A DNA stretch of 64,000 bases, from assembly GCA_963786375.1 (NCBI GenBank), contig CAWAYP010000013.1, forward strand, positions 15,479 to 79,478, in the 5' to 3' direction. The position numbers were made by a program, and so were the translations under genes. Positions 12,395 to 36,425 of this stretch are shown here, in pieces (the stretch's first letter is position 1; every line of letters begins with the position of its first letter). Source of the stretch: an uncultured Verrucomicrobiae bacterium (lineage in GTDB: Bacteria; Verrucomicrobiota; Verrucomicrobiia; Limisphaerales; UBA11358). A model generated the notes under the pieces. That model saw only the letters and a list, made by a program, of their open reading frames with translations, was not told the DNA's origin and did no database searches.

Positions 12395-13199
12395 GTGCTG
12401 GACGAATTTCTATCCTGGCTGGAAACACAATGTCCGGATTTTGAAATTCATCAGATCAAAATGAAATTGGGCGGCTTAAGAATTTATCTGGGCACAAAGA
12501 CCGATTTTGTAATTCCTGATGAAAAAATCCGTTCTGAAATTTTCCAATTGCAAAACCTGTTGCGCTTGCCACCATGCCCCCAGCACCCATCCGCGCGGCT
12601 CGCAAAAAACGTCAGAAAATTCCCGCAAACCATGAATTTCACCAGCCTCGACTTTGAAACGGCCAATCCCTCGCGCGTGAGCATCTGCGCCGCCGGGCTG
12701 GCCGTCTTTGAGGATGGCAAACTGACGGAGTCTCCATATTGGCTGGTGCGGCCACCCAAAGGCCACGGCTGGTTTCACGAAGACTTCATTGAATGTCACG
12801 GCTTGACGCATCTGGATGTTCTGGATGCCCCGGAATTTCCCGCCATTGCGCCGGAATTTCTGGCCCGGCTGACCCGCGCCGACCTCGTGATTGCGCATAA
12901 CGCCGCCTTCGACATCGAACATCTGCGCGCCACCCTGGATCATTTCGGTCTGCCCCGACCGGAGTTTGATTATGTTTGCACCTGTCAACTCGCCCGGCGC
13001 GTCTGGCCGGAACTGCCAAACCACAGCTCTCAACACCTTGACGGCGCATATCGGCCACGAGTTTAACCACCACCACGCCCAAGCCGACGCCGAAGCCGCC
13101 GGACGCGTGCTGCTGGCGATGATGAAACAGGTGAACGCAACCACGCCGCGCGAGTTGTTGCAAAAGGCGGGCATGGAGCCGAGACGTTTTTGTCAGTAA
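12395..13199 (+). pseudogene. DEDDh (DnaQ-like) 3'-5' exonuclease preceded in-frame by a QIKxKxGGLRxY-motif segment; one frameshift
   Basis: ExoI LDFETAN, ExoII IAHNAAFDIEHL and ExoIII HHAQADAEAAGRV. ExoIII lies in the frame of ORF 12891..13199. The shift is near 13019-13037. The exonuclease proper could start at ATG 12632. Confidence 0.7.
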
Positions 13200-13304
13200 A
13201 ATGAAACAGCAGCAGCGACTTTGCCGCATTGCCCAAGAATTTGATCAGCCAGAAACACAAATCGCCGCGACGATGATTGCCATAAGCCAACCGGAGAGGT
13301 ATCA

Positions 13305-18930: not shown

Positions 18931-19352
18931 CATGTATGCCTCATTGAGAAACAACGTTGAAATGGAGAAGTGTTTATTTGCTGGGGATTTTCTATTTTCG
19001 GTTGCCGACGCGGACAACACAATAGGGCCTGGCGTGATTTTGCAATTTTTCACGAGGCCAACGCGGCATCAGAATGTTGACCCGGAGGCGGGCTGCGAAG
19101 TGAAAGTTGGCTCAAAGCCACAATCTCATGATCGGGGTCGTTCGCGCACAAGACGCGACGCCACCAGTGAATCGGTAGTCGGCCCCAGAACCAAGCTCTT
19201 AAGCGGGCTTCAATCAGCACCATTGGCAGGTCGATTTTAGCAAAAATCGTGAAAGGGTACAAACTAATGAACGCGAGCAATATTGTGAATTATTCTTGAC
19301 ATGTTCAGACGAAAAACTGATAATAGAGCTCTAACTTGGGTTTAGGTAGGTT

Positions 19353-20192
19353 ATGGCAATAATCATTTCGTTTCAAAACGAATTGTTTTATAGTGGGTTG
19401 GCCTGCGGGGATGTTTGCAACAGCGGGCGTGGAAGAGCTAATGCCACCTTTCACCATGGTTCTGGAAAACCTTTCTTCAAATCTCTGCAGTTCGCCTTCG
19501 GGTTCACTCTCATTGAGCTTTTGGTTGTCATCGCTATCATCGGTATTCTCGCGGCTCTGTTGCTGCCGGTTTTAAGTCACGGGAAAGGTAAGGCGGCGGA
19601 AGTGGTGGACATTAACAACATGAAACAATTGACGACGGCGGTCCACTTGTACGCGAATGATAATCGGGATTTAATGCCGTGGTCCAATTGGGCGTCTGGC
19701 GACGCGCCGGATCGTCCCGGCTGGCTTTATACCATGCCAGAAAGCGTAATGGCAGGATCGCCTGCTTTTCAGGTTCAAACCGGCTTGTTCTGGCCAATCC
19801 TGAGAAATCCCAAGCTTTATTTTTGTCCTTTGGATGGCCCGAACACCCCCCTTTTTTCTGCGCGGGCGCAGCAGATCTCCAGCTATGTTATGAACGGGGC
19901 GGTTAATGGATATAATCGGGAGGACACAGACAAAACATTATTGACCAAGCTTGGGGATATGCGACCAAGTGGTGTGGTATTCTGGGAGACAGACGAAAGG
20001 CATCCAGAGTTTTTCAATGATGGAGCCAGTTACCCTAGTGAAGGGGTGAGCCAACGTCATGATAAGGGGGCGATTTATGCTGCTTTTGATGGCTCATCTG
20101 GGTTTGTTAAGTTTACCGATTGGTATCAGCAGGCAAACAGCGCAAATAAGAACAAGCTGTGGTGCTATCCTGGAAGTCTCGACGGACATTAG
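19353..20192 (+). CDS. prepilin-type N-terminal cleavage/methylation protein with H-X9-DG motif (DUF1559-like)
   Basis: FTLIELLVVIAIIGILAALLLP and the C-terminal HDKGAIYAAFDGS. About 45 residues precede FTLIELL, so the real start is uncertain. Confidence 0.8.
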   Translation: MAIIISFQNELFYSGLACGDVCNSGRGRANATFHHGSGKPFFKSLQFAFGFTLIELLVVIAIIGILAALLLPVLSHGKGKAAEVVDINNMKQLTTAVHLYANDNRDLMPWSNWASGDAPDRPGWLYTMPESVMAGSPAFQVQTGLFWPILRNPKLYFCPLDGPNTPLFSARAQQISSYVMNGAVNGYNREDTDKTLLTKLGDMRPSGVVFWETDERHPEFFNDGASYPSEGVSQRHDKGAIYAAFDGSSGFVKFTDWYQQANSANKNKLWCYPGSLDGH

Positions 20193-20207
20193 AACATTTC
20201 AAAAACA

Positions 20208-22396
20208 ATGCGCACTTTTTTTAGAAGGATAGCTGATAACAAATCAGGATTTTATCTGGCTTTAGCTGCCGTTGTAATTGTCGTCGGCTGGCACGCTTGG
20301 GTGCTTTCTCATAAACCTGCCCACTGGGAGGAAATAGCCTCGGAGTTGGGGTCTATTCCACAATTCGGACAATTGATCTACGCAAGCGATGACGGTGCGG
20401 TTGTATACACGCGTTTTTGCGAAGATAAGACAGGTTTCTTCTTCTGCGGAGGAGCAACGCAAAAAGCCCATTTATTGTGTGAAACAATACCGGACTTCTA
20501 CGGCTGGTCTCCAGATGGCAGCCGCCTCGCATATGGAATGCTGATGCCCTCCGGGAACTGGGAGACGGTCATTTGCGATGGGAATTCCGGAGAACAAATG
20601 GCGGTGCTGGAGCAGCCAGGGTTAATTGACCCCTCCATGTTCGCGTGGCTGTCATCCCGCTCATTCGGCTACTTACTAAAACAACAAGTTGGGTTCGATT
20701 TTGGCATGTTTGAACAAAAATCGGATGGAACGTGGGTAAGAGGCAAGACGGTTTCGGGCGTTACTATTTCCCCAAATTCTTTCACCGCTGTTTCCGAAAC
20801 GTCCGTTGCATGGGGGGAGCAACATGGTGTGAATCAGGTGGCTTATAGTGGCAGGGATCAGCAGTGGAAAGTTACCTTGGTTGGCGGCAACCAGTATAAA
20901 ATTACTGCTCAAAATGGTCTTGCTTTGGCGGGGCCGACTAATGAGTCGCAGCTTGTATTGCAGGCTTATACTGGCGAACCGGACCAGCTTTGGACATTCA
21001 CGGCCAATGGGACGAACTACAACATCATGAACGTTGGCAGCGGGGAAAATATGGACGATTGGTGGGGCGGTTCAGGTAATGTGGTTGGTCAATGGGAAGG
21101 GAACGGTACGAGTGCGAACCAGTTATGGAAACTGACCAGAGTTGGTGGAAATCCTCCAGGATCGACACCAATAGATGAATCTAACGCAATAGCCGATGGC
21201 ACATATGAAATCACTTGCCCTTCAGGCGGCGATTACGCCTTGAACTATTCCAACGGGGAGAGGACATCAAGCTGCTGGACATCAGTTCCGGTTCCGTTAC
21301 AACAATTTGGGAATCATCAACTGCCAACAATCTTTCAGAATTTATTTATTCCAGAAAAACCGGGGAATTTCTTCTAAATTGTCCTGATGAAAAAGGGTGC
21401 CACCTGATTCGTTATTACCCTCCCTCCAAATGGACAGCCGACGCTGGTAGAATTGACACCCCGCAAACATGCACATTCCGGCGGGATTCCAAATGGACAG
21501 ATGATTCGCCAACATTCATATCATCCTGGAACGATGGTTCGCCAAGATCCGTGTATTTGAGCGACGATGGCTTGAATACCTTTTGCATCAGCACCAACAC
21601 GAATTCAAATGTGATTAGTCTGCCTTGGCGGGGAGGAGTCGCTGTGCATACGTCATTGTATGGAAACCATTTATATATTGTCGGTGACCCCGCGAACGAA
21701 CCGCCCGGCATTTGGGATTACGACATAGCGTCTGGATCATTAAATTGTATTGTTCCCGATTTGGAACAACCCTTCAAATATGCCAAATATGCGACGCCAA
21801 TATGCGGAGAGGTGACTAATAACTCGGGCAATGTGGGGTGTTATACCTTATGGCAACCAGCTAATTTCTCTCCTCAAAAGAAATATCCGGTCATCATCGG
21901 CCAGACTGTCAATGCCGAATGGTTGCCTTATGAGCAAGTCGCAGCAAATTCTGGATGTTATTTCGCGGTGGTTCATCGCCCGTATTGGATGAGCAAAAAA
22001 TTACAGGATTGGCCTGCCGATGTGATGGGTCTGTATGAATTGCTGGCTAAAAATCCGAACATAGACACAAACCGGGTCTTTCTTTGGGGTCATAGCGTTG
22101 AGACTGTTTATTTATGTCAGCTTTTCGAGGAAAAACCTCAATTATGGAATGGTATAATCCTATTCGACCCTAGCGATCTGCCAGATGTGACAACCTTAAA
22201 ACACAAGAAAATACTCATTATCGCCGGGAAAGACAGCGACGCCCAACAATTGGTGCAATACAGTGACCAAGCCGCTCAAGCGGGGATTCCACTAAAGTTC
22301 ATTTTACTGGAAAACGACAAACACAATCCAGAGTCAACACGTAGTGTGCGCGCGCGAACACTGGAATTCGCTCGATTCCTAATTGAAAGCTTGTGA
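20208..22396 (+). pseudogene. membrane-anchored TolB-like beta-propeller / alpha-beta hydrolase protein with embedded ricin-type lectin module; one frameshift
   Basis: ORFs 20208..21377 and 21215..22396 overlap in different frames. N-terminal TM and WSPDGSRLAY. QxW triplet DQQWKV / DQLWTF / NQLWKL. C-terminal VFLWGHSVETVYL and KKILIIAGKDSD resemble an S9/esterase. Confidence 0.6.
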
Positions 22397-22564
22397 AAGC
22401 CGAAACGTATGACAAATGGAATGATGTCTTTGCAAAACGATTGTAGCGGTACTCTGTGAGCGTCGACAGGCCGTTGATTGCCAGGAAACCACGACGGTCA
22501 TGGGCCTCCTTGACAACAATAAATGAATTGCGGTTAGCCGGCGAGTATCTGGCCACGCGTTATT

Positions 22565-23245
22565 ATGCAACAGAAATTAATTAGTTTTTTCATTGGCTCA
22601 TCTGGCGCATTATTGCTGGCTGTAGGCACAGCGATGGTCATCTGCATTCCTGCCGGCCCTACAGTTGTGCTGATACAGGATCCCATTTTTCCGTTTTCAT
22701 CGCGGATCGTGTATTGGATATTTGCTGGGTTGGTATTCAGCGTGGCGCTAGTTTGTCTTTTCAGCCAAAACAAGTCTCTCAAGGCCACGTTGATTTTGTG
22801 GATAACGTTGAATATGGCAGTCTATGTGCTGGGTATTCAATGGAATGGACAGAACGGAGATTTAAACAACTATTTAATTCGTTATGCCGATGCCTTTGGC
22901 GTTACGCGAGGCGCGGCTTTCTGGATGATAAAGGTGACTTTCTTTTACTTCCTCGTTGGCGGCCTTATTACATCGCTGTGGATCTGGCGGGAGGGTTCCA
23001 AAGGGTATCTGAAGATTGTTTGTGCTCATTGTGGTGGCCACATTGCCTTTCTTGCCCAAGCATTGGGCCAACAAATTGACTGTCCGCATTGCCGGACTGC
23101 CATCACCTTGTTCAAACCAGATGAGAATCTGAAAATGACCTGCGTTTTATGCGGTGAACACGTTGAATTTCCCGCCCATGCGCTGGGGCAAAAAATCCCG
23201 TGCCCGCACTGCGCAAAAACTATCACCCTGCTGAAACCCGTTTGA
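22565..23245 (+). CDS. 4-TM membrane protein (paralog 1 of the cassette family) fused to two zinc-ribbon repeats
   Basis: Alignable to 25580 and 28049 (IQDPIFPFSSR, CLFSQNKSLKATLILW). Lacks the CxCLG motif. The C-terminus has CAHCGGH...CPHCRTAITLFKP and CVLCGEH...CPHCAKTITLLKP. Confidence 0.7.
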   Translation: MQQKLISFFIGSSGALLLAVGTAMVICIPAGPTVVLIQDPIFPFSSRIVYWIFAGLVFSVALVCLFSQNKSLKATLILWITLNMAVYVLGIQWNGQNGDLNNYLIRYADAFGVTRGAAFWMIKVTFFYFLVGGLITSLWIWREGSKGYLKIVCAHCGGHIAFLAQALGQQIDCPHCRTAITLFKPDENLKMTCVLCGEHVEFPAHALGQKIPCPHCAKTITLLKPV

Positions 23246-23251
23246 ATACTT

Positions 23252-23581
23252 ATGAGCACTCACTCGGATCGCATTCAAAACTGGTTGGAGTTTGCCCAAA
23301 ACGCTAATTGGTCTGTCGGCGCTCTGGCAAAAAAGTCTGGCGTTTCCGTGCGCATGTTGGAACGGCATTTTCTTCAAAACATGGGAAAACCACCCAAAGC
23401 TTGGCTTATTGAAAGACGTCAAAAGCGTGCTTTGGAACTCCTGCACGATGGCTGTTCGGTCAAGGAAACTGCGGCACATCTCGGATATCAGTACTCGAAC
23501 AATTTTTCGCGCGAATTCAAGGCATTTTGGGGATACAGCCCATCAGCTGAACTGGATCAAAAAGGAAGACGCTGCCAATAA
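23252..23581 (+). CDS. AraC-family HTH transcriptional regulator (DNA-binding domain only)
   Basis: WSVGALAKKSGVSVRMLERHFLQNMGKPPKAWLIERRQKRALELL...VKETAAHLGYQYSNNFSREFKAFWGYSP. Confidence 0.8.
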   Translation: MSTHSDRIQNWLEFAQNANWSVGALAKKSGVSVRMLERHFLQNMGKPPKAWLIERRQKRALELLHDGCSVKETAAHLGYQYSNNFSREFKAFWGYSPSAELDQKGRRCQ

Positions 23582-23719
23582 TTTGTCTCGTTTTGATACG
23601 AGATTTAACTGTTGCAGCGCTCATTTCTGTGTTAAATGGATAGTGAAAGTATAGAGTCGGCAGATACAGTATCGCTTGCAAAGCGGCGTTGCGGAAGCTG
23701 CGGGGAGACAATGCAGTGA

Positions 23720-24715
23720 ATGTCGTCCTCAATAATCGCTAATAACTATATGAGGTGTTGCATTGTGTTATTTTGCATAGTTTTGACAACGAAAGCGGTT
23801 GCGGATAATGTCGCAACGGCGCCGGGCGATCTCGTTGCATTTTTTAAGCAAGCCCTCAGTTCGCCACCGGATGTTGAAAAGTATGTCGTGAGCCAGCGCC
23901 AACTTGAATCAATTACCCCCTCTATTGGTCCACCGACTAAAGCAGGTTCAATATCATATTATATGGGTGCAGGAGCAGGCAGTAATTATTTCTTGCAAAT
24001 TCTATCTGGTTCCAATGGCCTTCCAGACTTAAGCGAGAAACGGCTTATCGCCGGGCGATCTGGGGCTGCTGCATATGAAGTCAACCAAAATGCCATAAGT
24101 TTTGGCGTCGGGTCAAATGGATTATCAGGAAACGTTCGAGTGTTGTATATAATGATGCGACAATACTTAGGCATGGGAATAAGTGAGGTTGAGCCTGAAA
24201 GCCTGAGATGGGTTGGCAATAGTTTTACGGCAACGAACAATCACGGCCTTGCTATATATGGCGAGTTAAGCATTTCAAATGGCCTTCCATGCAGATTAGG
24301 AGTCAGTGTCGCTAAAGGTTCGCCACCATACAAGATTGTAGAATACACATACCCCAATCCGCCGCAATCCCTAAATGGTTTCCCTTCCAAGATGATAATT
24401 TCAAGGGCGCCTTACGGTGTGGTGAAACCGTTCTGTGAGGTATCATTTTATTCAGTCCAATTAGCAAGGCAACCGTTATCTGACGATTTTTTTGCTGCCG
24501 CGCAATTTATTGGGACAAACAACATATACACCAATCTATACAGTAATGCAGACCTCTACGTTCAGAACAGCCGCGGTCAGATGGTCAAGGCGCCATATGT
24601 GATTCTGAAATCTGGCAAGTATACGAACTCGCGTCCACGAGCGCTTGTTTTTCTGTGTTTAGCGCTGGCGACCATAATTCCTATTACATTTTTGATTTTG
24701 TTGCGTAAAAAATAA
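23720..24715 (+). CDS. secreted protein with C-terminal TM anchor (cassette component)
   Basis: 331 aa with an N-terminal hydrophobic signal and a C-terminal ALVFLCLALATIIPITFLILLRKK. Same architecture as 28510..29595. Confidence 0.6.
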   Translation: MSSSIIANNYMRCCIVLFCIVLTTKAVADNVATAPGDLVAFFKQALSSPPDVEKYVVSQRQLESITPSIGPPTKAGSISYYMGAGAGSNYFLQILSGSNGLPDLSEKRLIAGRSGAAAYEVNQNAISFGVGSNGLSGNVRVLYIMMRQYLGMGISEVEPESLRWVGNSFTATNNHGLAIYGELSISNGLPCRLGVSVAKGSPPYKIVEYTYPNPPQSLNGFPSKMIISRAPYGVVKPFCEVSFYSVQLARQPLSDDFFAAAQFIGTNNIYTNLYSNADLYVQNSRGQMVKAPYVILKSGKYTNSRPRALVFLCLALATIIPITFLILLRKK

Positions 24716-24735
24716 ACAAACTAAGAAAGGAATAT

Positions 24736-25083
24736 ATGAAAAAATCGGTCATCATAATGCGAATAGTAACTGTTGTAGGAGTCCTAAGCTTCGCATGGTA
24801 TGTGAAGGCGCAGAGCGAAAATAATTGCAGTGGTACCACCGCAAATCCATGCCACACCGCGTCCGAATTGGTGTTTTCTTGTAACAACACATATGATTGT
24901 GCAGAGTACACAGAGTCCGGCGGGGCAAATGTGCTTGCTTGCACATCAGATGGCACACCTGTCGGCCAATGCAAATACCAGTCAAATGTAAATTGCACTT
25001 GGTTAGATACTTGGCTCTATTGCGATAATAGTGTTTCCTCTGCAAATGCCTCGGAACAGGTATCCCCAACCAAATGCCAGTAA
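24736..25083 (+). CDS. small Cys-rich secreted protein (9 Cys in the mature part)
   Basis: Signal peptide MKKSVIIMRIVTVVGVLSFAWYVKAQS, then ENNCSGTTANPC.... Starts 20 nt after the upstream gene. Paralog at 29609..29893 shares the S-x-NNC start. Confidence 0.6.
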   Translation: MKKSVIIMRIVTVVGVLSFAWYVKAQSENNCSGTTANPCHTASELVFSCNNTYDCAEYTESGGANVLACTSDGTPVGQCKYQSNVNCTWLDTWLYCDNSVSSANASEQVSPTKCQ

Positions 25084-25408
25084 GGCGAAGCAATGGTTGT
25101 CCCTGATTTAATTGCAAGACTCGAGTAAATGTAAACTGACTCATTTGCACCTAAAATGTGTACAGCAAAGAGGATATTCACGGATGTTTAGTGACTAAAT
25201 AATGATGGGGAAAGGGGATCTTTTAGAGAAGAAGTATGATTGACGGCGTTGATTTCATGGTGGCGTTGGTGGTTTTGAGGTCGCGCCAGTGCTCCGCGCC
25301 CGACTCCGGTTCGCTTTACCGTGCTGTGGCGGGCTGATTTTTGGGTTGGCCGGAGACGCGCTTATTGCCAGGCTGGAATGCATGGATAATATGCTGACTT
25401 ATCTCAAA

Positions 25409-25449
25409 CATCACATCACATCACATCACATCACATCACATCACATCAC
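25409..25449. repeat. pentanucleotide microsatellite (CATCA)8
   Basis: Counted directly: eight perfect units plus one extra base. Intergenic, about 130 bp upstream of 25580. Confidence 0.95.
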
Positions 25450-25579
25450 TAACGCGGTCACCGAAAGGGCTGAACTCGAAAATCCAAAGCAGCAAATCTG
25501 TCGCCCGGGGCTTCCGCAATTTCAAATATTACCGGACGCGCATCCTCTTGTTCTGCGGAAAGCTTGACTTTAACGCACT

Positions 25580-26038
25580 ATGATCCGTAATGAATTCGCA
25601 AAGAAATGGTTCTGCTTGAGTTCGGGAATGATTCTCTTCATTACCGGAGCGGCAAAAGTATGGAGCGTATTGGGCGGTGCTAAAATATTGGCGCAAATCG
25701 ATCCAGTTTTTGGTCTACAGTTTGGTCGCTTAATGTTTGTTGCAGGGATTTTGGAATTGATGATAGGGGGCATTTGCCTTTTCAGCAAATCACGGATGCT
25801 AGCATTAATGCTTGTAGCATGGCTAGCTACAAACTTGTCAATTTATCGAATGGGCTTATGGTACATAGGCTGGCATCGCCCCTGCGCCTGTCTGGGCAAT
25901 CTCACGGATGCCATTCACGTCTCGCCGCAAACCGCTGATACCACCATGAAAATAATTTTGGCATATTTGCTAATTGGCAGTTATTCTTTTTTGTTTTGGT
26001 TCTGGCGGCAGCACCGAAAGGCAGAAGGAAGAACGTAG
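25580..26038 (+). CDS. MauE/DoxX-like 4-TM membrane protein with CxCLG motif (paralog 2)
   Basis: Four hydrophobic segments. HRPCACLGN lies between TM3 and TM4. The family call rests on architecture and motif only. Confidence 0.65.
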   Translation: MIRNEFAKKWFCLSSGMILFITGAAKVWSVLGGAKILAQIDPVFGLQFGRLMFVAGILELMIGGICLFSKSRMLALMLVAWLATNLSIYRMGLWYIGWHRPCACLGNLTDAIHVSPQTADTTMKIILAYLLIGSYSFLFWFWRQHRKAEGRT

Positions 26039-26471
26039 AATGATGAAGTAAAGTTGGTTACTGCAAGCCCATAAATTTGAGTCGGCAGTTAACAGCGTGT
26101 AATGAACTGGCATAGCGGCATCAAGGTCACACTGTTACTGGCGATTGTGGCCTTTTGCCTGTTTGAATATGCGTTGCATCGGCAAAGCGGTCTTTTTCAG
26201 GAGTTTGAAGAGACGCTGCTATCTCTTCAATGGATGATGTTGGTTTGCCTTGCGATTTGGTGCGGTGCTTTCCTCTTTTTGACATTCAACCTAACTGACT
26301 TACCGATTGTTGGCCTGCTACTCATTGCAATTGCGGCATATTTCATCTGTTACGCGACGTTTTGGCTGGAGACGGATGCCCTCACGTTTTTGGCCGGCAT
26401 GACATTGGGCAGGGGTGCGTGTTTCGCGCTGGAAAGCAGAAGCCAGAGGCCAGAAATCAGCAATACTTTAA

Positions 26472-26503
26472 AAATCCGAAATCCGAAATCCGAAATCCGA
26501 AAT
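26472..26503 (+). repeat. heptanucleotide repeat (AAATCCG) x4.5 inside the Wzy_C pseudogene
   Basis: Counted directly. It translates as IRNPKSEIRN. Confidence 0.95.
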
Positions 26504-26674
26504 TTTCTTGTCGGTTTGGTTTTGCTGCTGGCTTTTTCATCTTGGTGGCATTTGGGTATGTCGGACAATTTTTATCACGGGCCGCGCTGGATGGGGCTTT
26601 GGGATAATCCAAATATTTATGGGATGTTAATGGGGGCGGGCGTTGTCCTGACAGCAGGACTTTTAGCGGATAGG

Positions 26675-26744
26675 AGATTGGAAGATACCAGATGAAAGAT
26701 GGAAGATAAAAGACAGAAAAAGGAAAGCGGAAGGCGGAAGGTAG
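26675..26744 (+). repeat. degenerate heptamer array (about 10 units of AAGATGG-like), contains the in-frame TGA
   Basis: AGATTGG AAGATAC CAGATGA AAGATGG AAGATAA AAGACAG AAAAAGG AAAGCGG AAGGCGG AAGGTAG. Confidence 0.8.
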
Positions 26745-28048
26745 AAACAATTGATATTCTTTTGATCGCAGCGGGGATGATGGGCATGGGGTTGCTGTTC
26801 AGCTACAGCCGGGGGGCATGGATGGGGACGGCAGTTGGACTGCTGTATCTGGCAAGTGCCTATAGCGAATTAAAATTGCGTATACTCTAACATGAATTTT
26901 TTGTGTTTGCTGTTTATTATTGGTCTTGGTTTTTTTGGAATGCCACGCCCCGACAATGCACCGTGGTATTTACAGCGGATGGATTTGGAAGCCGCGGCTC
27001 AGCTCAACACCGGTGTCCGCCTGGCGTGGGAAGCGGTTTGAAAATGATGTGGGATCATCCATTTGGCGTGGGCTGGAACAATGTCGTTGATGTCATGACA
27101 GAAGCATTATTTCCGCCTGAAGGTGGTGCGGTGGCCATCACCACAAACGATTATTTAATGCTGGGGACACAGTTGGGCTTGCCAGGGCTGCTTTGTTTTG
27201 TGGCGTATGTGGGGCTATCTCTTGGTCGAAGGACGAGAGTCGAGCGTCGAGAGCTGGAGAAAGTCACGTCATCTGTCACCTCTCACTGGTCATATTGCGT
27301 GGCGTGCCGCGCTGGTACTTTGGCTATGTTGGTGGCGTTTTGGTTTGACGGCGGGCTATTCAAGCTGGCCACGGCTTCCGTTTTTTGGGTTTTGCTGGAA
27401 TTGGGACGAGAAGATTTGCGACAGACCGCCTGAATAATTCTCTCTCGAGGGCCTCGAAAGCGTGGGCGTCACGCCAAGCACCTCTATTCAATGAAGTCAT
27501 AGACGTCGCCCATTAGCGTCAGCGGTCCATAGCGAAATGTATTTTCCGTTGGCCAGCTTTCCTTTTATTAAGAGCTGTCTTTGTCTTTGGCCAGTATGAC
27601 GGGCGTTGTTCAAGATGCGATTCCTTCCTGTCATTTCAGTCGCTGATACGGACCGATTGCCCCACAACTAAGCAGGTTCCACTGTGGGCGCAAACTCCCT
27701 GAACGGCGCATTGGGTAAATGTCGCGTTTTGGTAGCTGATTTTACTTCATTTGGAAGACTTCTGATGGTTTAATTGGAACCGGAAATGAGTGCTGGCAAA
27801 TCCGGCCAGGGCGGCGCCAAGAACGCGACCATCTTGAAAATCACGGGTGCCGCCGGTCTATACAAAAAATCCATGATCATACAAAACACCGCTAATTTGC
27901 AATGGTCGGCCAACGACCCCGCCAACGCCGAAGTGCGCGATGAATTCCGGCTTAACACTTTTCCGCTCGCGAACCATGCACCTCCCAAACCGACACCGCC
28001 TGCCATGCCTGCAAAGTGAAAATAAGTTCTCAAAAGTGGAGCGAGGAG

Positions 28049-28507
28049 ATGTCATCCAGTAATTCCACGCATTGGCTAATAAAATTCTTCTTTTATTCTT
28101 CTGCTTTAAGTTTGGTGCTTACGGCTTGTGCCAAGCTAATTAGTGCTTTTGGAAAGGCTCCAATTTTAGATTCTCCTGATGTTTTGTTTCCAATAAGAAC
28201 GAGGTTGCTTATATGTTTAGTTGGAACAACCGAAATCGTCATAGCGGCTCTTTTACTTTCACAAATACAATCACGTGCAAAAATTTTTGTTCTGTTGTGG
28301 CTGGCCTTTTCCTTTTTTCTTTATAAGACAGGCTTGTTCGCTCTTCATGCCCCATTGCCGTGTCCATGTTTGGGAACTGTAACGGCATCCCTAGGCATCG
28401 CTCCAAAAACTGCAACCATCGTAACGGATGTATTTCTGATGTATTATCTAACTGGGTCGTTAATCTACCTTGGTTTGAACGATAAAAGAATCGTGAATAA
28501 ACCGTGA
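28049..28507 (+). CDS. MauE/DoxX-like 4-TM membrane protein with CxCLG motif (paralog 3)
   Basis: ATG preceded by GAGGAG. LPCPCLGT lies between TM3 and TM4. Alignable to 25580 (LDSPDVLFPIRTR, LLLSQIQSRAKIFVLLWL). Confidence 0.7.
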   Translation: MSSSNSTHWLIKFFFYSSALSLVLTACAKLISAFGKAPILDSPDVLFPIRTRLLICLVGTTEIVIAALLLSQIQSRAKIFVLLWLAFSFFLYKTGLFALHAPLPCPCLGTVTASLGIAPKTATIVTDVFLMYYLTGSLIYLGLNDKRIVNKP

Positions 28508-28509
28508 AA

Positions 28510-29595
28510 ATGATGAATACAATGAGGGAACAAATTGGGGCAATGTTTGTCATAGGTATTATTTTGCTTTCACAATGTAATGCGCTTAGCGAATACACAC
28601 TCGAAGGTATCGCGACCTTTGGGCCGGCTTCACAATTTCCAACGATGCGCTTCAACCTCACCTTGGAGAATCGCGACAAAGAATATAGGATAACGGCTAA
28701 AGCTATCGATGGGGAATGGTATAATGACGAGGTTACTTCAGGAGATGGATTGGATAATTATTATTTAGACCAAACATGGCCGTCTTGGGATGCGAGAGCA
28801 AAAAAACAAGGGTACCGAGAGGCGGGGACAGTCATTGAGGGCGATTTCCCAGCAAATTCGCTGTCAATAGTTCAGTTGACGTGGCTGATGTATTGTTCGG
28901 CGTCACATTTCCATACTGGAACAAACAGCTTGACCATTCCTTTACGCTGCGCAAAGTACGCACCTGCGGATGGATTGACAGAGGTTGTTTCTTTTACGGC
29001 ATCGGCAGCCAATGTCGTTGATAAAATACAATGTTTTACATACACAGCTCCATTTGCATCAAATAACACAAAAGCAATTGCCCCAACGTCACTTTATGAT
29101 AGAGGATATTTGCTTTGGGAGATACACGCCACAACTTTCACCAATTTAGGAAGCTTAACATTGCCGCGTTCATTTGAATATGATCAATACATTCCAAATG
29201 GTACAAATAGTTCGGATTTGAATTGTGTTATGAGGGCCAAATTCGTGGTAACAAATATTTTAGCCGAAGTTACTGCTCAAAGTCTTCTGCCCATGACGAC
29301 AATGAAGGACGCGCCCGTTTTTGATTGGCGGTTCAATAAGGATCAGGTTGCAATGGATAAATCAGGCCAAATGGGGACTCCTGTAGTTACCTATAAAATA
29401 AATGATGGTAAGTGGAGAAAACGGGATGATTCAGGCATAAAGTATCAAGTGATTGCCATACGGCAGATGGTTCATACCACACAGCCGGCTAAAGGGGGTA
29501 TGGTAATCAAATGGTTCGTTTATTCTGCTTTAATCATATTAACTTTGTTTCTAGGCTGGTGCACAAAACGAAAAACAAATAAACCAAACAAATAA
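28510..29595 (+). CDS. secreted protein with C-terminal TM anchor (cassette component)
   Basis: Begins 3 nt after the upstream stop. Signal IGAMFVIGIILLSQCNA. C-terminal VIKWFVYSALIILTLFLGWCTKRK. Confidence 0.65.
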   Translation: MMNTMREQIGAMFVIGIILLSQCNALSEYTLEGIATFGPASQFPTMRFNLTLENRDKEYRITAKAIDGEWYNDEVTSGDGLDNYYLDQTWPSWDARAKKQGYREAGTVIEGDFPANSLSIVQLTWLMYCSASHFHTGTNSLTIPLRCAKYAPADGLTEVVSFTASAANVVDKIQCFTYTAPFASNNTKAIAPTSLYDRGYLLWEIHATTFTNLGSLTLPRSFEYDQYIPNGTNSSDLNCVMRAKFVVTNILAEVTAQSLLPMTTMKDAPVFDWRFNKDQVAMDKSGQMGTPVVTYKINDGKWRKRDDSGIKYQVIAIRQMVHTTQPAKGGMVIKWFVYSALIILTLFLGWCTKRKTNKPNK

Positions 29596-29608
29596 ACAAC
29601 AAAAGCAT

Positions 29609-29893
29609 ATGAAAAATGCAAAAATCGTAATATTGGTGGTAGCATTCGTGTCGGTATCGGCTGCTTTATTATTGGCTGATGAAGGTTATCAAGCAGCTGG
29701 ACAAGCAGAAACAATAGACGTTAGCAACAATTGTCCAAATGGAGGCTGCACAATGAAATCATGGACACACTATGGTTGCATTGACAGTGGATCTGGAAGT
29801 TGCACGCCGTCTGATGATCCTAATCCGGCTCCCGTGGTATCTGGATCATGTTCTTTGCAAGGTGGAGTGTATTACTGCTTGGCGTCATCGTAA
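29609..29893 (+). CDS. small Cys-rich secreted protein (6 Cys in the mature part)
   Basis: Signal MKNAKIVILVVAFVSVSAALLLA, then ...VSNNCPNGGC...YYCLASS. There is a 13-nt gap to the upstream gene. Confidence 0.6.
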   Translation: MKNAKIVILVVAFVSVSAALLLADEGYQAAGQAETIDVSNNCPNGGCTMKSWTHYGCIDSGSGSCTPSDDPNPAPVVSGSCSLQGGVYYCLASS

Positions 29894-29921
29894 AAAGGCG
29901 GCTCTTATCCTTGACAGTGGG

Positions 29922-31283
29922 ATGAACTGGCGTGGCGGCATCAGAGTCGCATTGCTGCTGGCGCTTGTGGCTCTATGCCTTTTTGAATTTGTATTGCATT
30001 GGCGGAGCAGGATTTTCTGTGAGTTTGAAGCACCGTTACTTCAAGCACAATGGATGCTGCTAATTTGCCTAGTTATTTGGTGTAGCAATTTTCTCATTTT
30101 AACATTCAGCGTGATCGATTTGCCGTTGATCGGTCTGCTTCTCGTTGCCATGGCCGCATATCTAATCGGTGATGCAGCGGTCTGGCGGGAGACGGATGCC
30201 ATCATTCTATTGGCGGGCGCAACCCTGGGCAAGGGGGCGCGGTTCGCGTTGATTGGAGATGGGAGATGGAAGATGGAAGATGGGAAAAATAATTTAGAAA
30301 TCGTAAATCGTAAATCAGCGATTGTAAATTTTTTGGTCGGCTTGGTCGTGTTGCTGACTTTTTCGTCTTGGTGGCATTTGGATGTACCGAATTATTTTTA
30401 TCAAGGGCTGCGCTGGACGGGGCTTTGGGACAATCCTAACATTTACGGAATGTTGATGGGTGCGGGGCTAGTGCTGGCGGCAGGCCTGTTGATTGAGGAG
30501 CACAGCTGCTGTTCACCGCACCTTGCATCGAACCTGGGAAATGCTAACGACGAAGCGTCGCTGGCTGCGCGCGGGGCTCTCTCTCGCTCTCTCATTTTTC
30601 TTTGGATTGGAGCCGGCATGACGGCAGTAGGTTTGTTTTTCAGTTACAGCCGGGGTGCATGGTTGGGAACGGCGATTGGCCTGCTGTATCTGGCAAAGGC
30701 GCATTGCAAATTCAAGTGGAGTTGGGTGCTGCCGGGAATCTTGGTGGCTGCTACCGCAGTATATTTGTTTTGGCATTCCACGGCGGACGATGCCGCGTGG
30801 TATCTCAAGCGTCTGGATCTTGGCCGGCCGTCAGCCCAGCACAGAGTTGCTGCCTGGAAGGCGGCAGTCCATATCATGCGGGATCATCCATTGGGCGTGG
30901 GCTGGAACCAGGCGGTTAACGTCTATGAGAAAAATTATTCGCCGCCTGAAAACGGCGCTGCAGCGATCACCATGAACAGCTATTTGATGTTGGGAACGGA
31001 GTTGGGCTTGCCGGGACTGCTTTGTTTTGTCGGGTATGTGGCGCTGTGCTTGGGAACTGGAAGATGGAACATCGCAAATAGACCACGCCTCACCATGCCT
31101 CATCCTCAGCTCCTCTCCAATCCGATTAGAGAGGGTGGCAAAATTGCCTGCCGCGCGGGGGCTTTGGCGTTGCTAGTGGCATTTTGGTTTGATGGAGGGT
31201 TGTTCACGCTGGCAACGGCGTCTGTGTTCTGGATTTTGCTGGAATTGGGAACTGCGCACGCGGCAACTCTCACAAGCTGCTAA
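29922..31283 (+). CDS. Wzy_C/O-antigen-ligase-like polytopic membrane protein (intact)
   Basis: Multi-TM profile with FSYSRGAWLGTAIGLLYL, HRVAAWKAAVHIMRDHPLGVGWN and NSYLMLGTELGLPG. ORF 29772..31283 trimmed to MNWRGG by alignment with the paralog start MNWHSG. Confidence 0.85.
   Translation: MNWRGGIRVALLLALVALCLFEFVLHWRSRIFCEFEAPLLQAQWMLLICLVIWCSNFLILTFSVIDLPLIGLLLVAMAAYLIGDAAVWRETDAIILLAGATLGKGARFALIGDGRWKMEDGKNNLEIVNRKSAIVNFLVGLVVLLTFSSWWHLDVPNYFYQGLRWTGLWDNPNIYGMLMGAGLVLAAGLLIEEHSCCSPHLASNLGNANDEASLAARGALSRSLIFLWIGAGMTAVGLFFSYSRGAWLGTAIGLLYLAKAHCKFKWSWVLPGILVAATAVYLFWHSTADDAAWYLKRLDLGRPSAQHRVAAWKAAVHIMRDHPLGVGWNQAVNVYEKNYSPPENGAAAITMNSYLMLGTELGLPGLLCFVGYVALCLGTGRWNIANRPRLTMPHPQLLSNPIREGGKIACRAGALALLVAFWFDGGLFTLATASVFWILLELGTAHAATLTSC
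30256..30318 (+). repeat. heptamer repeats inside the intact Wzy_C gene: (RAGATGG) x4 at 30256-30283 and (AAATCGT) x3 at 30298-30318
   Basis: Counted directly. They translate as GDGRWKMEDG and EIVNRKSAIV. Confidence 0.9.
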
Positions 31284-31717: not shown

Positions 31718-32713
31718 ATGAAACAGCGTTTTATCCTGTTCCGGCGCGCGGGAGTGTTCTACTACGAGGACACCAGCACCGGCCAACAACTCAGCCTCCG
31801 CACCAAGGACGAAGCGGAAGCCCGCACCCTGCTTAACGCCAAGAACGAGTCGTTCCGGCAGCCGGTGTTGAACCGGCAGATTGCCCGCACCTATCTGGCG
31901 GCGACCGATTCGGCGATGGCCACGCGCATCTGGCAGGTGCCGATGGACGAAATGACCAAGACCAAGACCGGGGCAACACGCCTGCGGCACGAGTGCGCCA
32001 TGCGGGACAAGGCGTTTGACCTGATCCGCCACCTGCCGATTCTGGAAACCCACTCGGCCCACTTCCTGAAAGTGCTGGAATTGGGAACCGTCTCAACGAA
32101 TGTTTACCTACGACGGATTCACAACTTTGCCTTGGACATGAACTGGCTGCCGTGGCCCATCCTGCCCAAGAAGCAATGGCCGCAAGTGCGCTTCAAAGAA
32201 AAACGTGCCATCACACTTGAAGAACACCAGCGCATTATTGAGGCCGAAGTGAACCCGGAACGCAAAAACCTTTACCAGTTGTGCTGGTACTTGGGCGCAA
32301 GTCAGGGTGACATTGCCAGCTTGAAGGGGGAGGACGTGGACTGGAAAAACGGCACCGTCAGTTTCATCCGCAAAAAGACCGGCGTGCCGGTGCTCGTCCA
32401 CTTGGGCGCGGAAGCTCTGAATCTGTTCAAAGACCTGCCCGCCGAAGGTTTGTTGTTTCCGTATCTTGCGAGTGTGAGAGCAGGGGACAGAGCCACGGAG
32501 TTTAAGCAACGGTGCAAGCAACTGGGCATCCAAGGGGTTACACTCCACAGCTACCGGTACGCTTGGGCAGAACGCGCCAAAATGGTTGGCTACCCGGAAC
32601 GGTTTGCGCAGGAGGCTTTGGGACATAACAGCAAGGCGGTACATCGGGCCTATGCGAGACGGGCGCTGATGAAGATTCCGTCACTGGAAGAATACGAGCA
32701 ACGGGTGGCCTAA
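31718..32713 (+). CDS. tyrosine recombinase/integrase int2 (intact)
   Basis: 331 aa with ...VTLHSYRYAWAERAKMVGYPERFAQEALGHNSKAVHRAYAR.... Full-length paralog of int1. Confidence 0.9.
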   Translation: MKQRFILFRRAGVFYYEDTSTGQQLSLRTKDEAEARTLLNAKNESFRQPVLNRQIARTYLAATDSAMATRIWQVPMDEMTKTKTGATRLRHECAMRDKAFDLIRHLPILETHSAHFLKVLELGTVSTNVYLRRIHNFALDMNWLPWPILPKKQWPQVRFKEKRAITLEEHQRIIEAEVNPERKNLYQLCWYLGASQGDIASLKGEDVDWKNGTVSFIRKKTGVPVLVHLGAEALNLFKDLPAEGLLFPYLASVRAGDRATEFKQRCKQLGIQGVTLHSYRYAWAERAKMVGYPERFAQEALGHNSKAVHRAYARRALMKIPSLEEYEQRVA

Positions 32714-32793: not shown

Positions 32794-33060
32794 TCAAGGC
32801 GCAGTCGGCGTTGGCTCCAGCGCAGTGTTAGGCCGCTTCAGGAGTGTAGTGCCCAAAAAGAACAACAAGGAAAGACCGCACAATGCCAAGAGGCTTGGCT
32901 CTGGCACTTGCTCTGGCGAAAACTGAATATTATCAAGGAGAGAGCCGTCGTCCCCAGATGGGTTCAGCCAAGGCTTTGTAAACCGCAGTTCTCCCGTCTG
33001 CCCGGCATATGCCGAAATGTCCACGCCCCATACTTGACCCATTTTTGTAGGAAGGATCAT
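32794..33060 (-). pseudogene. C-terminal fragment of a PEP-CTERM protein
   Basis: ...LDNIQFSPEQVPEPSLLALCGLSLLFFLGTTLLKR gives the PEP motif, a TM segment and a basic end. There is no N-terminal domain or signal peptide upstream. Confidence 0.6.
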
Positions 33061-34216: not shown

Positions 34217-34377
34217 CTCCCAACTGTGAGTGCAGCAATGGGTTAGGAGGTTGATGGGTCCAAACGGACACCATTTTCACTACTCCGTCAGAATTCGGCG
34301 TAACCGGAGCTAACTCGCCCACTGCTCCGTAACACTGCGGATTCGGTTTCATTTATCCTCGCGGTTGCGTGAAAATT

Positions 34378-34989
34378 ATGAAAACACGTTACCGCTTAAC
34401 CCGTCGAGGCAGCCGGGGAGACACTTTTTACTTTGTGGACACCGTTGCCCGCAAACACCACAGCCTGCACACGACAGACGAACACAAGGCTCTGCAAATC
34501 GTCGAGGCTAAAAATCTGGCCGAACGCCAGCCGGAAACTAACCTGCAAATCGCCAAAGCCTGCCTTGCGGCCACGGATGAAAACTTTATCAACCGCACCT
34601 GGCGCGAGGTCATGGCTGAATTCATCAAAACCAAAACCGGCAACAACCGCACCCGTTCGGAACGCGCGGTCATGGACAAATCTTTCGACACAAGCGAGGC
34701 GTGGCCGCACGAACAGCAACAGTTCGTCCGGTGGTGCCGAAGTCCCCGGCGCCGTTTCAACCATCTTGACCAAGCCGCCGCTTAAGAATGCATCTTGAAC
34801 CTTTAAAGACGCGCAATTACGGAAGTTCCATGACTGATATTTGGGTCACGCGGGTTGCGCGACTCTGTCTCTGAAAACGCGCTGATCGTGGCGAAAGCAA
34901 ATCGCAGTTGCCGTCGTGAAAGAATCATCGGTATTTCGTTGCATTCCTACCGCTAGGCGTGGACACAACGGGCAAAGAAAGTCGGCTAG
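34378..34989 (+). pseudogene. integrase int3 wreck: N-terminal domain, internal deletion, and a C-terminal piece with TAG in place of Tyr
   Basis: The N-terminus MKTRYRLTRRGSRGDTFYFVD...LQIAKACLAATDENFINRTW aligns with int1 and int2. At 34930-34989 the sequence reads GISLHSYR*AWTQRAKKVG*, compared with G(V)SLHSYRYAWAERAKKAG in int1. Confidence 0.75.
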
Positions 34990-36299: not shown

Positions 36300-36418
36300 A
36301 GCGGTTGAAGTGTAAGGTTCAGGGCATCCAGTCGCTCTGCCGAAACAGCCACTGGCACAAACAACACCAGCAACACCAGCGTGGCCAAGGTGGGCAATGG
36401 GTAAGAGCGTTTGTTCAT
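36296..36418 (-). CDS. 40-aa single-TM peptide
   Basis: MNKRSYPLPTLATLVLLVLFVPVAVSAERLDALNLTLQPL. Starts 8 nt after the adhesin stop, and its stop overlaps the start of 35031..36299 (ATGA). Confidence 0.35.
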   Translation of the reverse strand: MNKRSYPLPTLATLVLLVLFVPVAVSAERLDALNLTLQPL

Positions 36419-36425
36419 GTTTGCA

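Follow-up and report, generated by a model that had tools for sequence, protein, structure and literature searches.

We analysed a 64,000-nt stretch of the genome of an uncultured Verrucomicrobiae bacterium (assembly GCA_963786375.1, contig CAWAYP010000013.1, positions 15,479 to 79,478; hereafter the window), in which a mobile island carries two copies of a three-gene cassette together with five conserved genes beside them. The cassette comprises genes for a membrane-anchored protein, a small Cys-rich secreted protein and a MauE-type protein with four transmembrane (TM) segments (4-TM). The conserved genes encode a Wzy_C-family membrane protein, a pilin-like protein, an S9-like hydrolase, a 4-TM protein with zinc ribbons and an AraC-type regulator. 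The system occupies 19353-31283 and is accompanied by an integrase gene at 31718-32713; features lie on the plus strand unless otherwise given. An earlier note, made from the letters of this DNA, had drawn the unit more narrowly, as 22565-31283, and the conserved unit in fact begins upstream at 19353. The open reading frames (ORFs) named in that note were all found at their reported coordinates and strand, and the motifs LPCPCLGT and HRPCACLGN are present. Its statement that no system of this composition has been described agrees with our literature searches, which found none. The whole assembly also failed to match any curated protein family or defence model.

Cassette A, the upstream copy, encodes an anchored protein of 331 amino acids (aa; 23720-24715), a small protein of 115 aa with nine Cys residues that ends in TKCQ (24736-25083) and the 4-TM protein 4TM_B (25580-26038), which bears the motif HRPCACLGN. 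It is followed by a Wzy_C pseudogene (26102-27433). In cassette C the 4-TM gene comes first (4TM_C, 28049-28507, motif LPCPCLGT), followed by an anchored protein of 361 aa (28510-29595), a small protein of 94 aa with six Cys residues that ends in YYCLASS (29609-29893) and an intact Wzy_C gene (29922-31283). This downstream operon had been described as tightly packed, as it is, with gaps of 3, 13 and 28 nt; the first gap is 2 nt. The upstream copy had been called rearranged and partly decayed. The decay is real only for the Wzy_C pseudogene, and the gene order is the commoner of the two that occur among 52 automatically recognised cassettes (anchored-small-4TM in 40, 4TM-anchored-small in 12).

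The same gene set recurs in about 30 related loci, mostly from metagenome-assembled genomes of Verrucomicrobiota. Thirteen loci (L001-L013) were obtained by look-up of relatives of the anchored proteins and the 4-TM protein. Here the cassette and the constant genes recur together, the additional neighbourhood genes being those for the pilin-like protein (19353 in the window), the S9-like hydrolase (20208-22396) and the zinc-ribbon 4-TM protein followed by the AraC regulator. A search of GTDB species representatives with the Wzy_C alignment yielded some 20 loci with a 46-62% identical Wzy_C protein, none identical to the window. Their labels are mostly Verrucomicrobiia, Verrucomicrobiae or Limisphaerales, and the few odd bin labels may reflect mis-binning or horizontal transfer. 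In these genomes the 4-TM gene with a CXC motif lies almost always directly 5' of Wzy_C, and the pilin-like, hydrolase, zinc-ribbon and AraC genes are also found beside Wzy_C. Between AraC and Wzy_C, nearly every locus encodes an anchored protein (280-450 aa), a secreted Cys-rich protein (74-152 aa) and a 4-TM protein. The linkage between families on which the earlier note depended thus extends to other genomes, and since dozens of independent loci share the gene set, a chance origin is excluded.

A metagenome scan with a 4TM_B-type alignment identified 384 stretches encoding a relative, of which the 80 best were used for counting. Immediately upstream of the 4-TM gene, 41 of the 57 loci with enough sequence have a small Cys-rich secreted ORF, and small and anchored ORFs are both present upstream in 28 of 38. 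Wzy_C directly follows the 4-TM gene in only 17 of 49 loci, because tandem arrays of cassettes end in one Wzy_C gene. Such arrays contain two cassettes in L094 and L157 and three in L165; a single Wzy_C follows one to three cassettes, and the cassettes of L007, L008 and L011 have no Wzy_C nearby. The cassette proposed in the earlier note, with four genes, therefore has a core of three. The variable cassette consists of the anchored, small Cys-rich secreted and MauE-type 4-TM genes in one to three tandem copies, and the constant module consists of Wzy_C, the pilin-like protein, the S9-like hydrolase, the zinc-ribbon 4-TM protein and the AraC regulator. Duplication, as seen in the window, is therefore a normal state of this type of locus.

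Three further observations concern these neighbourhoods. A protein of about 494 aa with a weak match to the transglutaminase core is often encoded 3' of Wzy_C (L010, at 13173-14657; L022, L033, L127, L131, L134, L138 and L157) and is absent from the window. A variant cassette in L016 (7871-9073) begins with the small Cys-rich gene, and its 278-aa partner has an N-terminal TM segment only, with no C-terminal anchor. Thioredoxin-family genes lie 3-6 kb from cassettes, outside them, in L001 (3950-4549), L010 (6356-6841) and L012 (7399-7953); these could encode a missing MauD/DsbA-like partner or be incidental.

The 4-TM proteins of the two cassettes were compared with the Pfam MauE family (PF07291). 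4TM_B scored 26.5 bits (E 9e-6) and 4TM_C 26.9 bits (E 7e-6), just under the gathering score of 27, with alignments spanning positions 10-125 and 2-119, respectively, of the 128-position hidden Markov model. The profile was matched by 19 of 25 cassette 4-TM relatives at E<=0.01, and one relative fused to an anchored protein (P0082) reached 29.7 bits, above the cut-off. The L001 orthologue of 4TM_C is 81% identical to it. As the earlier note had proposed, the three 4-TM proteins of the window are paralogs (23-32% identity, BLASTP E 8e-6 to 5e-22). Y92 is invariant among 25 aligned cassette 4-TM proteins, and conservation reaches at least 90% at A28, K29, D44, E62, C105, C107 and G109. K29 lies in TM1, E62 in TM2 and the CXC, within the active-site motif PCxC[LM]G, in the loop between TM3 and TM4.

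MauE proteins from two phyla replace DsbB in E. coli, either Cys of the periplasmic TM3-TM4 CXC is needed for disulfide formation, and a conserved Glu and a conserved Lys form the predicted binding site of the quinone head group (10.64898/2026.03.05.709764). 4TM_B, in which the CXC, Lys and Glu are all kept, and 4TM_C both correspond to such a disulfide-former, and oxidase activity is predicted for both. Their CXC loops are placed in the periplasm by the positive-inside rule. K29 and E62 are equated with the Lys and Glu of the preprint from their positions rather than by direct alignment to its proteins. The same study reports that 8.2% of MauE entries are fused to thioredoxin-fold proteins and proposes MauE as a generalist oxidase in phyla lacking DsbB and VKOR (10.64898/2026.03.05.709764). 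In L019, L027, P0063 and P0082, MauE and the anchored protein are encoded in one ORF, which argues for physical coupling of the two. The redox role that the earlier note gave to the 4-TM protein, acting on the Cys-rich protein, is reasonable, since MauE has been shown to form disulfides through its CXC.

The two anchored proteins share an architecture, namely a signal peptide, an ectodomain and a C-terminal TM segment with a basic tail. An AlphaFold2 (AF2) model of the cassette A protein, which we term the alpha type, had a mean predicted local distance difference test score (pLDDT) of 83.9 and a predicted template modelling score of 0.72. Foldseek matched this model to PDB entries of LolB (9tpm, E 1.8e-5) and LolA (2w7q and 4ki3), to ependymin-related proteins and to RseB. 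For LolB and LolA the probability was 1.0 and the TM-scores were 0.36-0.56, a likeness of fold only, and on the model the alpha-type ectodomain is a LolA/LolB-like open beta-barrel. No LolA-family sequence profile in Pfam or NCBIfam matched it. The cassette C protein, the beta type, has a mostly-beta ectodomain. A word-index search recovered 26 relatives of the alpha type and five close relatives of the beta type, and a full HMMER search of 1.84 billion representatives returned 216 beta-type clusters at E<=1e-3. A C-terminal TM segment was present in 130 of 149 beta-type clusters among those listed.

Beyond the cassettes, the beta ectodomain also follows, as a fusion, a BlaR1 M56 protease domain in P0073 (131 bits) and an extracytoplasmic function (ECF) sigma factor with a TM segment in P0127, contexts which argue for ligand binding. 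Together with the MauE fusions, they lend weight to the suggestion in the earlier note that the anchored protein acts as a binding partner, whether chaperone or receptor. That note had also regarded the anchored and the Cys-rich proteins as recurring paralogs. No similarity was detected by BLASTP or shallow profiles between the two anchored proteins of the window, nor between the two small proteins, and the copies therefore correspond by position and architecture, not as demonstrable paralogs. An hhalign comparison of the alpha type with a deep beta-type alignment gave a probability of 90.6 (E 1.3e-6) over 285 collinear columns and was confident only over the C-terminal TM segment and tail. 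Common ancestry of the two types is possible.

The small proteins were surveyed in a set of 81 that adjoin cassette 4-TM genes, a few of which are false positives of the automatic filter. All 81 start with a signal-like hydrophobic segment, and in 71 the last Cys lies within five residues of the C-terminus. After crude removal of the signal peptide the number of Cys residues is even in 62 and odd in 19, a dominance which suggests that the cysteines are probably all paired. The same prevalence led us to reject glycocin-like S-glycosylation of the near-C-terminal Cys. From their sequences, the small proteins look like fully disulfide-bonded mini-proteins with stapled termini. Their C-terminal groups include C-x(0-3)-GG, CQ/CN/CP/CK and C[LAS]ASS, and most end in Gly, Pro, Gln, Asn or Cys, not in Ser or Thr. 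Orthologues of the cassette C protein in L001, L002 and L006 are 49-63% identical and all end in C[LAS]ASS. The cassette A protein, which belongs to no Pfam or NCBIfam family, is weakly related to the proteins encoded at the corresponding position in L009 (30% identity) and L010 (23%); none of the 67 small proteins scanned against Pfam gave a match.

Divergence differs sharply between the components. Over pairs of loci, median identity-times-coverage was 46 for Wzy_C, 39 for the 4-TM protein and 0 for both the anchored and the small protein; by global alignment, Wzy_C is 53% and the 4-TM protein 32% identical between loci. Between the window and L001, identity falls from 81% (4-TM) through 68% (anchored) to 49% (small). 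Two cassettes within L015 follow the same gradient, with values of 71 for both Wzy_C and the 4-TM protein, 55 for the anchored and 31 for the small protein. The small protein thus diverges fastest wherever homology is still visible. This gradient, together with the arrays, the decayed copies and the mobile setting, is what would be expected if a strain-specific interacting pair were subject to diversifying selection or to cassette replacement.

The Wzy_C protein of the constant module is 453 aa long and matched Pfam Wzy_C (PF04932) over residues 233-370 with 69.4 bits (cut-off 31.7). It is 52% identical in protein to the product of the upstream pseudogene, and the 68-72% identity of the two copies in DNA accords with the roughly 70% estimated earlier by eye. 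The pseudogene runs in one frame with two nonsense codons, TGA at 26693-26695 and TAA at 26888-26890. A frameshift was rejected on the basis of the single frame, and recoding of the in-frame TGA was rejected because an in-frame TAA is also present. The active site was mapped by motif onto E. coli K-12 WaaL using H-[NSQ]-x9-G-x2-[GTY], whose His corresponds to WaaL H338 and TfpM H286. The alignment of the Wzy_C profile to WaaL was not significant (E 0.17), so that this mapping relies on collinear motifs. R215 and R288 of WaaL correspond to R244 and R308, which are present in all 17 sequences of the subfamily. Position 351, the equivalent of H338, is Met in the window protein and Thr in 13, Met in three and Leu in one of the 17 sequences, never His, and the rest of the motif is kept. 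By comparison, the motif of Wzy_C proteins from other phyla in the same scan starts with His in 53 of 61 cases (HN in 48, HS or HQ in five). This His is required for activity in WaaL, PglL and TfpM (PMC9829042).

Loss of the His runs counter to the PglL/WaaL-type O-glycosylation put forward in the earlier note. Enzymes of the TfpO/TfpM class are 420-470 aa long and recognise an acceptor sequon in which a disulfide loop is closely followed by a C-terminal Ser or Thr (PMC9829042). An O-glycosylation step is not supported here, because the His is lost throughout the subfamily and most candidate acceptors do not end in Ser or Thr. The Wzy_C protein may instead be a non-canonical enzyme, a Wzy-polymerase-like protein or a pseudoenzyme. 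Searches of PDB sequences with the protein and with the 17-sequence profile returned nothing even at E<=10, and viral contigs scanned with the profile contained no relatives. No flippase, chain-length regulator or glycosyltransferase was found in the island or in the approximately 20 closest Wzy_C loci. An ordinary lipopolysaccharide or exopolysaccharide locus was rejected because the window and its relatives are devoid of these genes, and the placement of Wzy_C relatives outside such loci held for the close relatives.

The first gene of the cluster (19353-20192) encodes a protein resembling type IV pilins and type II secretion pseudopilins. It has an N-terminal methylation motif (Pfam N_methyl, 25.2 bits against a cut-off of 21.2), a weak DUF1559 match and an H-x9-DG motif near the C-terminus, and its similarity to solved pilins and GspG covers residues 43-135. 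The gene occupies a syntenic position in L001, L009, L016, L017, L028, L031, L032, L094 and L138 and lies directly 3' of Wzy_C in L001, L009 and L028. The pilin-like proteins end in residues other than Ser or Thr.

The hydrolase gene is split in the window. Its 5' part (20208-21377) encodes an N-terminal TM segment, a conserved N-domain and a ricin-type lectin insertion (RicinB_lectin_2, E 1.5e-12) that is absent from L001; its 3' part (21215-22396), in another frame, encodes an S9-like alpha/beta hydrolase with homology from 21278. Residues 5-208 of the first ORF match the N-terminal part of a single 567-aa protein of L001, which in tblastn runs through frame 3 and then frame 2 of the window. 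The gene is therefore frameshifted here, one homologous protein spanning two overlapping ORFs in different frames. It is intact elsewhere, as in the 567-aa protein of L001 and a 632-aa PD40 plus Peptidase_S9 protein of L010. Nineteen of 20 relatives keep the nucleophile Ser, and the same number a C-terminal His; the nucleophile elbow reads [GA]-x-S-[AV]-E, not G-x-S-x-G.

The third 4-TM protein of the window, 4TM-ZnR (also 4TM_A; 22565-23245, 226 aa), is a MauE-fold paralog without the CXC, Lys and Glu that carries two C-terminal zinc ribbons. Its loss of the Cys pair, the zinc ribbons and the AraC gene next to it were all as the earlier note described. It is 27% identical to 4TM_B (E 9e-17), contains four CxxC motifs and is the sole sequence in the 4-TM family alignment that lacks K29, E62, C105 and C107. 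It is no locally decayed copy, as had been supposed. Nineteen of 20 collected sequences are true relatives, all without CXC; 18 of these have four or five CxxC motifs, and one that is shorter and probably partial has two. 4TM-ZnR thus belongs to a separate conserved family of MauE-fold proteins that appear catalytically dead and whose zinc ribbons are probably cytoplasmic. The adjacent gene (23252-23581) encodes an AraC-type regulator of 109 aa that consists of the helix-turn-helix (HTH) domain only (Pfam HTH_18, 71 bits). It lies directly 3' of 4TM-ZnR in every related locus where AraC was detected.

The island (~18 to 30 kb) has a GC content of 42-50%, against 54-62% in the flanks, and is bounded by a tyrosine recombinase gene (31718-32713; Pfam Phage_integrase, 44.7 bits). 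The island lies next to an integrase in the same arrangement in L016, and a 59%-identical integrase occurs in L003. Upstream of the island are genes for a TrwC-type relaxase with an AAA_30 helicase domain (7550-9247, minus strand), an RNase_T-like exonuclease (12395-13066) and a protein with a GmrSD N-terminal domain (13305-13790). The low GC content, the tyrosine recombinase and the TrwC relaxase point to an integrative, probably conjugative, element; the upstream genes and the integrase together suggest that such an element, conjugative or mobilisable, takes up the first ~33 kb of the window. Loci L002-5 adjoin ParB/RepB, resolvase and restriction-modification genes; in these loci the cassette MauE is truncated and the 3' end of Wzy_C, encoding the C-terminus, is swapped for a C-terminal fragment of an integrase. 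In the window, an exact repeat of 16 nt, TGCTGGAATTGGGAAC, is shared by the intact Wzy_C gene, at its 3' end (31237-31252), and the integrase gene, in its interior (32073-32088), and a near copy (14 of 16 bases) marks the 3' end of the Wzy_C pseudogene (27393-27408). This repeat was the sole candidate in a search for attachment sites of the island and may be a recombination site for the addition of cassettes.

The best sigma-70-like promoter match (TTGACA-17-GATAAT, 11/12) lies just 5' of the first gene of the cluster (19296-19324); it is based on the consensus only, and the region shows no significant enrichment of such matches. A pentanucleotide repeat, (ACATC)8, with no strand assigned, lies at 25408-25447 in the 496-nt spacer 5' of 4TM_B. 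It could act as a slipped-strand switch that renders the downstream genes phase-variable. An Rfam scan of 15-37 kb found no RNA families. The PADLOC models matched none of 10 island proteins, on which ground an anti-phage defence system was ruled out. NCBIfam likewise yielded no meaningful match to a cassette protein.

Several genes beyond the integrase were noted. A 138-aa ORF at 34369-34785, some 1.7 kb downstream, resembles by eye the N-terminal part of the integrase at 31718 and looks like a truncated second paralog. A small ORF on the minus strand (32794-33060) ends in what by eye is a PEP-CTERM-like signal (VPEPS, a hydrophobic helix and a basic tail), which suggests an exosortase system in the host. 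Three consecutive minus-strand genes at 35031-47665, encoding a predicted outer-membrane beta-barrel of 422 aa (weak OMP_b-brl match), a 737-aa DUF11-repeat protein and a 3017-aa ORF, may form a surface adhesin locus.

We propose that each cassette provides private oxidative folding for a hypervariable miniprotein and a cognate binder for it, most likely as effector and immunity protein or as signal and receptor, a proposal to which we assign a probability of about 0.45. Its core, the private folding and the cognate binder, we regard as probable, and the antagonistic role, in which a strain-specific secreted effector is paired with a protective binder much as a bacteriocin with its immunity protein, is offered tentatively. 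Among possible roles, the bacteriocin-like pair is ranked first and a signal with its receptor second; the former is favoured because the small and anchored proteins diverge fastest, because cassettes form tandem arrays and because they reside on elements bearing integrases and relaxases.

In the proposed scheme, the small protein, with 4-12 Cys residues, would be exported by the Sec pathway and receive its disulfides from the MauE oxidase of its own cassette, acting through the periplasmic CXC loop and passing electrons to quinone. The anchored ectodomain, which the fusions place beside MauE in the membrane, would bind the miniprotein of its own cassette, as the sensor-domain contexts and the co-variation of the two proteins lead us to infer; the alpha type would bind as a LolA-like domain and the beta type as a sensor-type domain. 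The constant tier would serve all cassettes, with the S9-like hydrolase putatively processing the product and the pseudopilin-like protein putatively assisting export. The dead MauE-zinc-ribbon protein and the adjacent HTH-only AraC may form a membrane-linked regulatory pair. The individual parts (MauE, Wzy_C, LolA-like, pilin-like, S9-like, AraC and tyrosine recombinase) match or resemble known families; as a system, their assembly, in which arrayed, hypervariable cassettes with private oxidases adjoin a constant module with two apparent pseudoenzymes, appears to be new, with a function predicted from sequence.

A number of points weigh against this proposal. It is drawn from sequences and models, and the only basis for assigning signal peptides and topology was hydrophobicity and charge. 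The small and anchored proteins matched no family of toxins, bacteriocins or immunity proteins, and no dedicated outer-membrane export component is present. MauE normally works through a thioredoxin-fold partner (10.64898/2026.03.05.709764), of which there is none in the cassette, and if MauE is a generalist, a private oxidase for every cassette is unexplained. The anchored proteins, of 330-450 aa, would be large immunity proteins, and that they serve as sensor domains is at least equally consistent with signalling. The AF2 model of the beta type, built from a five-sequence alignment that is too shallow, reached a pLDDT of only 35.5. The roles given to Wzy_C, the dead MauE and the pseudopilin are guesses.

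Strain-specific signalling, which we judge unlikely, would make the oxidised miniprotein a signal and the anchored protein its receptor, which would engage the dead MauE-zinc-ribbon protein and so release or activate AraC; hypervariability would then reflect diversification into separate signalling types. The beta ectodomain is indeed the sensor module of BlaR1-type and ECF-sigma proteins, and the anchored proteins, with only a short basic cytoplasmic tail, would need a co-receptor. The dead MauE would suit that part, in that it keeps the 4-TM fold of an oxidase found fused to the anchored protein and has traded catalysis for two zinc ribbons, and the AraC that always directly follows its gene, where detected, has no ligand domain of its own. 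Nevertheless, decayed copies and tandem arrays, here of up to three cassettes, are seen more typically in effector/immunity loci than in signalling loci, the interaction is putative, and Wzy_C, the hydrolase and the pseudopilin are left just as unexplained. A fuller version is more doubtful still. Here the mobile cassette array would serve cell-cell recognition in Verrucomicrobiota, as a class of system not recognised before, the miniprotein signal, disulfide-stapled by the MauE of its own cassette, being relayed by the anchored sensor and the dead MauE-zinc-ribbon protein to AraC, with the His-less Wzy_C as a non-canonical enzyme or scaffold. A role for Wzy_C as a TfpO/PglL-type O-oligosaccharyltransferase, modifying the Cys-rich or the pilin-like protein with undecaprenyl-linked glycans made elsewhere in the genome, appears improbable. 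Its domain score is well above threshold, its 453 aa fall within the 420-470 aa of TfpO/TfpM, and both Arg residues (the equivalents of WaaL R215 and R288) are invariant. Moreover, the island lacks glycosyltransferases, as tfpO islands do, the C-type small proteins end in Cys-x-A-S-S, reminiscent of the C-terminal Ser/Thr sequon of TfpO/TfpM, and a pilin-like gene comes right after Wzy_C in three loci. However, the required residue is Thr, Met or Leu in 17/17 sequences where 53/61 motif matches from other phyla have His, the usual C-terminal residue of the small proteins is Gly, Pro, Gln, Asn or Cys, and TfpO-type pilin glycosylation was rejected on the C-termini of the pilin-like proteins. 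A single Wzy_C per one to three cassettes, and its absence near those of L007, L008 and L011, also fit poorly.

The remaining alternatives account for less of the locus. Retention of Arg with loss of His is compatible with Wzy polymerases. Wzy_C might accordingly be a polymerase or ligase of the Wzy type that uses Arg, not His, in an envelope-polysaccharide island whose other genes are unrelated or accessory to the envelope, and an epimerase and a glycosyltransferase family 2 (GT2) gene do lie beside the cassette in L007. We consider this very unlikely: the absence of flippase, chain-length regulator and glycosyltransferase genes from the island and the ~20 closest Wzy_C loci speaks against it, and the tight, repeated linkage to the MauE, anchored and small proteins, with the fusions, would be left unexplained. 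That the MauE copies are merely a general replacement for DsbB, with incidental neighbours, is scarcely credible. Such a housekeeping pathway would accord with the proposed generalist role of MauE in phyla without DsbB and VKOR, but not with one MauE per cassette, tandem arrays, MauE-anchored fusions or a location on a mobile, integrase-bearing island of low GC content, nor with MauE identities as low as 32-39% between loci.

Should private oxidative folding with a cognate binder prove correct, the consequences extend beyond this island. MauE has only recently been proposed as a major bacterial disulfide-former; in this type of island each cassette would have its own MauE oxidase, at times fused to its neighbour, beside a dead paralog, and this would be the first natural context pointing to a substrate-specific MauE function. 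The locus type encodes hundreds of unrelated disulfide-rich secreted miniproteins with predicted cognate binders. If these pairs are effector and immunity protein, or signal and receptor, they represent a new reservoir of bioactive mini-proteins and, if real, a handle on competition or communication in poorly studied Verrucomicrobiota of soil and freshwater. The cell-cell recognition system, if true, would be a new signal-transduction architecture made from two pseudoenzymes. The His-less Wzy_C subfamily may represent new chemistry or a pseudoenzyme, and counsels caution against annotation as O-antigen ligase.

Comparison with known systems places each component. MauE, which acts with MauD and MauA in methylamine utilisation, shares with the cassette 4-TM proteins the four TM segments, the periplasmic TM3-TM4 CXC and the conserved Lys and Glu, and it too is paired with a small Cys-rich periplasmic protein, MauA having six disulfides. 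The cassette proteins differ in scoring just below the Pfam gathering cut-off and in having no MauD/DsbA thioredoxin-fold partner in the cassette. The island, unlike the methylamine genes, provides one oxidase per hypervariable cassette, sometimes fused to the anchored ectodomain, and contains a conserved zinc-ribbon dead paralog and no methylamine dehydrogenase genes. With TfpO/PilO, TfpM, PglL and WaaL the Wzy_C protein has in common its domain, its length of 453 aa, two periplasmic Arg residues and the N-x9-G-x2-G part of the motif, as well as the adjacent pilin-like gene and an island without glycosyltransferases. In the island subfamily, however, the essential His (WaaL H338, TfpM H286) is replaced, there is no sequence likeness to solved structures, and candidate acceptors mostly lack a C-terminal Ser or Thr.

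The alpha-type anchored protein resembles the open beta-barrels of LolA, LolB and RseB in its AF2 fold (Foldseek probability 1.0 to LolB and LolA) but has no sequence-family match to them, TM-scores of 0.36-0.56 and an ectodomain of ~265 aa compared with ~180 aa for LolA. It is, moreover, held by a C-terminal TM segment and encoded beside a Cys-rich miniprotein, not in a lipoprotein-sorting pathway. Polymorphic toxin/immunity arrays (contact-dependent inhibition, Rhs and bacteriocin loci) likewise set tandem variable cassettes beside conserved machinery, confine extreme divergence to the cassette proteins and feature decayed copies, integrases and conjugative elements. The island differs from these in having no recognisable toxin or immunity domain, in its three genes per cassette, including an oxidase of its own, and in a candidate effector that is a separate Sec-exported miniprotein instead of the C-terminal tip of a large protein.

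By analogy, the closest precedent in logic appears to be the sublancin locus of prophage SPbeta, sunA-sunT-bdbA-sunS-bdbB with sunI, which encodes a Cys-containing peptide, the DsbB-type oxidase BdbB and the immunity protein SunI (PMC6391423). The likeness is of logic only, since the hallmarks of glycocins (a leader peptide, a SunT-type ABC/C39 exporter and a GT2 S/O-glycosyltransferase) are all missing from the island. The island would belong to a Gram-negative periplasm and use Sec signal peptides in place of a leader peptide and an ABC/C39 exporter; its oxidase is MauE, not of the DsbB type, and it has no cytoplasmic GT2 glycosyltransferase. Its products are 50-130 aa long, its cassettes are arrayed and hypervariable, and any antimicrobial activity is putative. 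Nonetheless, both loci unite, on a mobile element, a Cys-containing secreted product, a dedicated membrane thiol oxidase, a membrane protein that confers immunity in sublancin and is a candidate for this role in the island, and a glycan-related enzyme.

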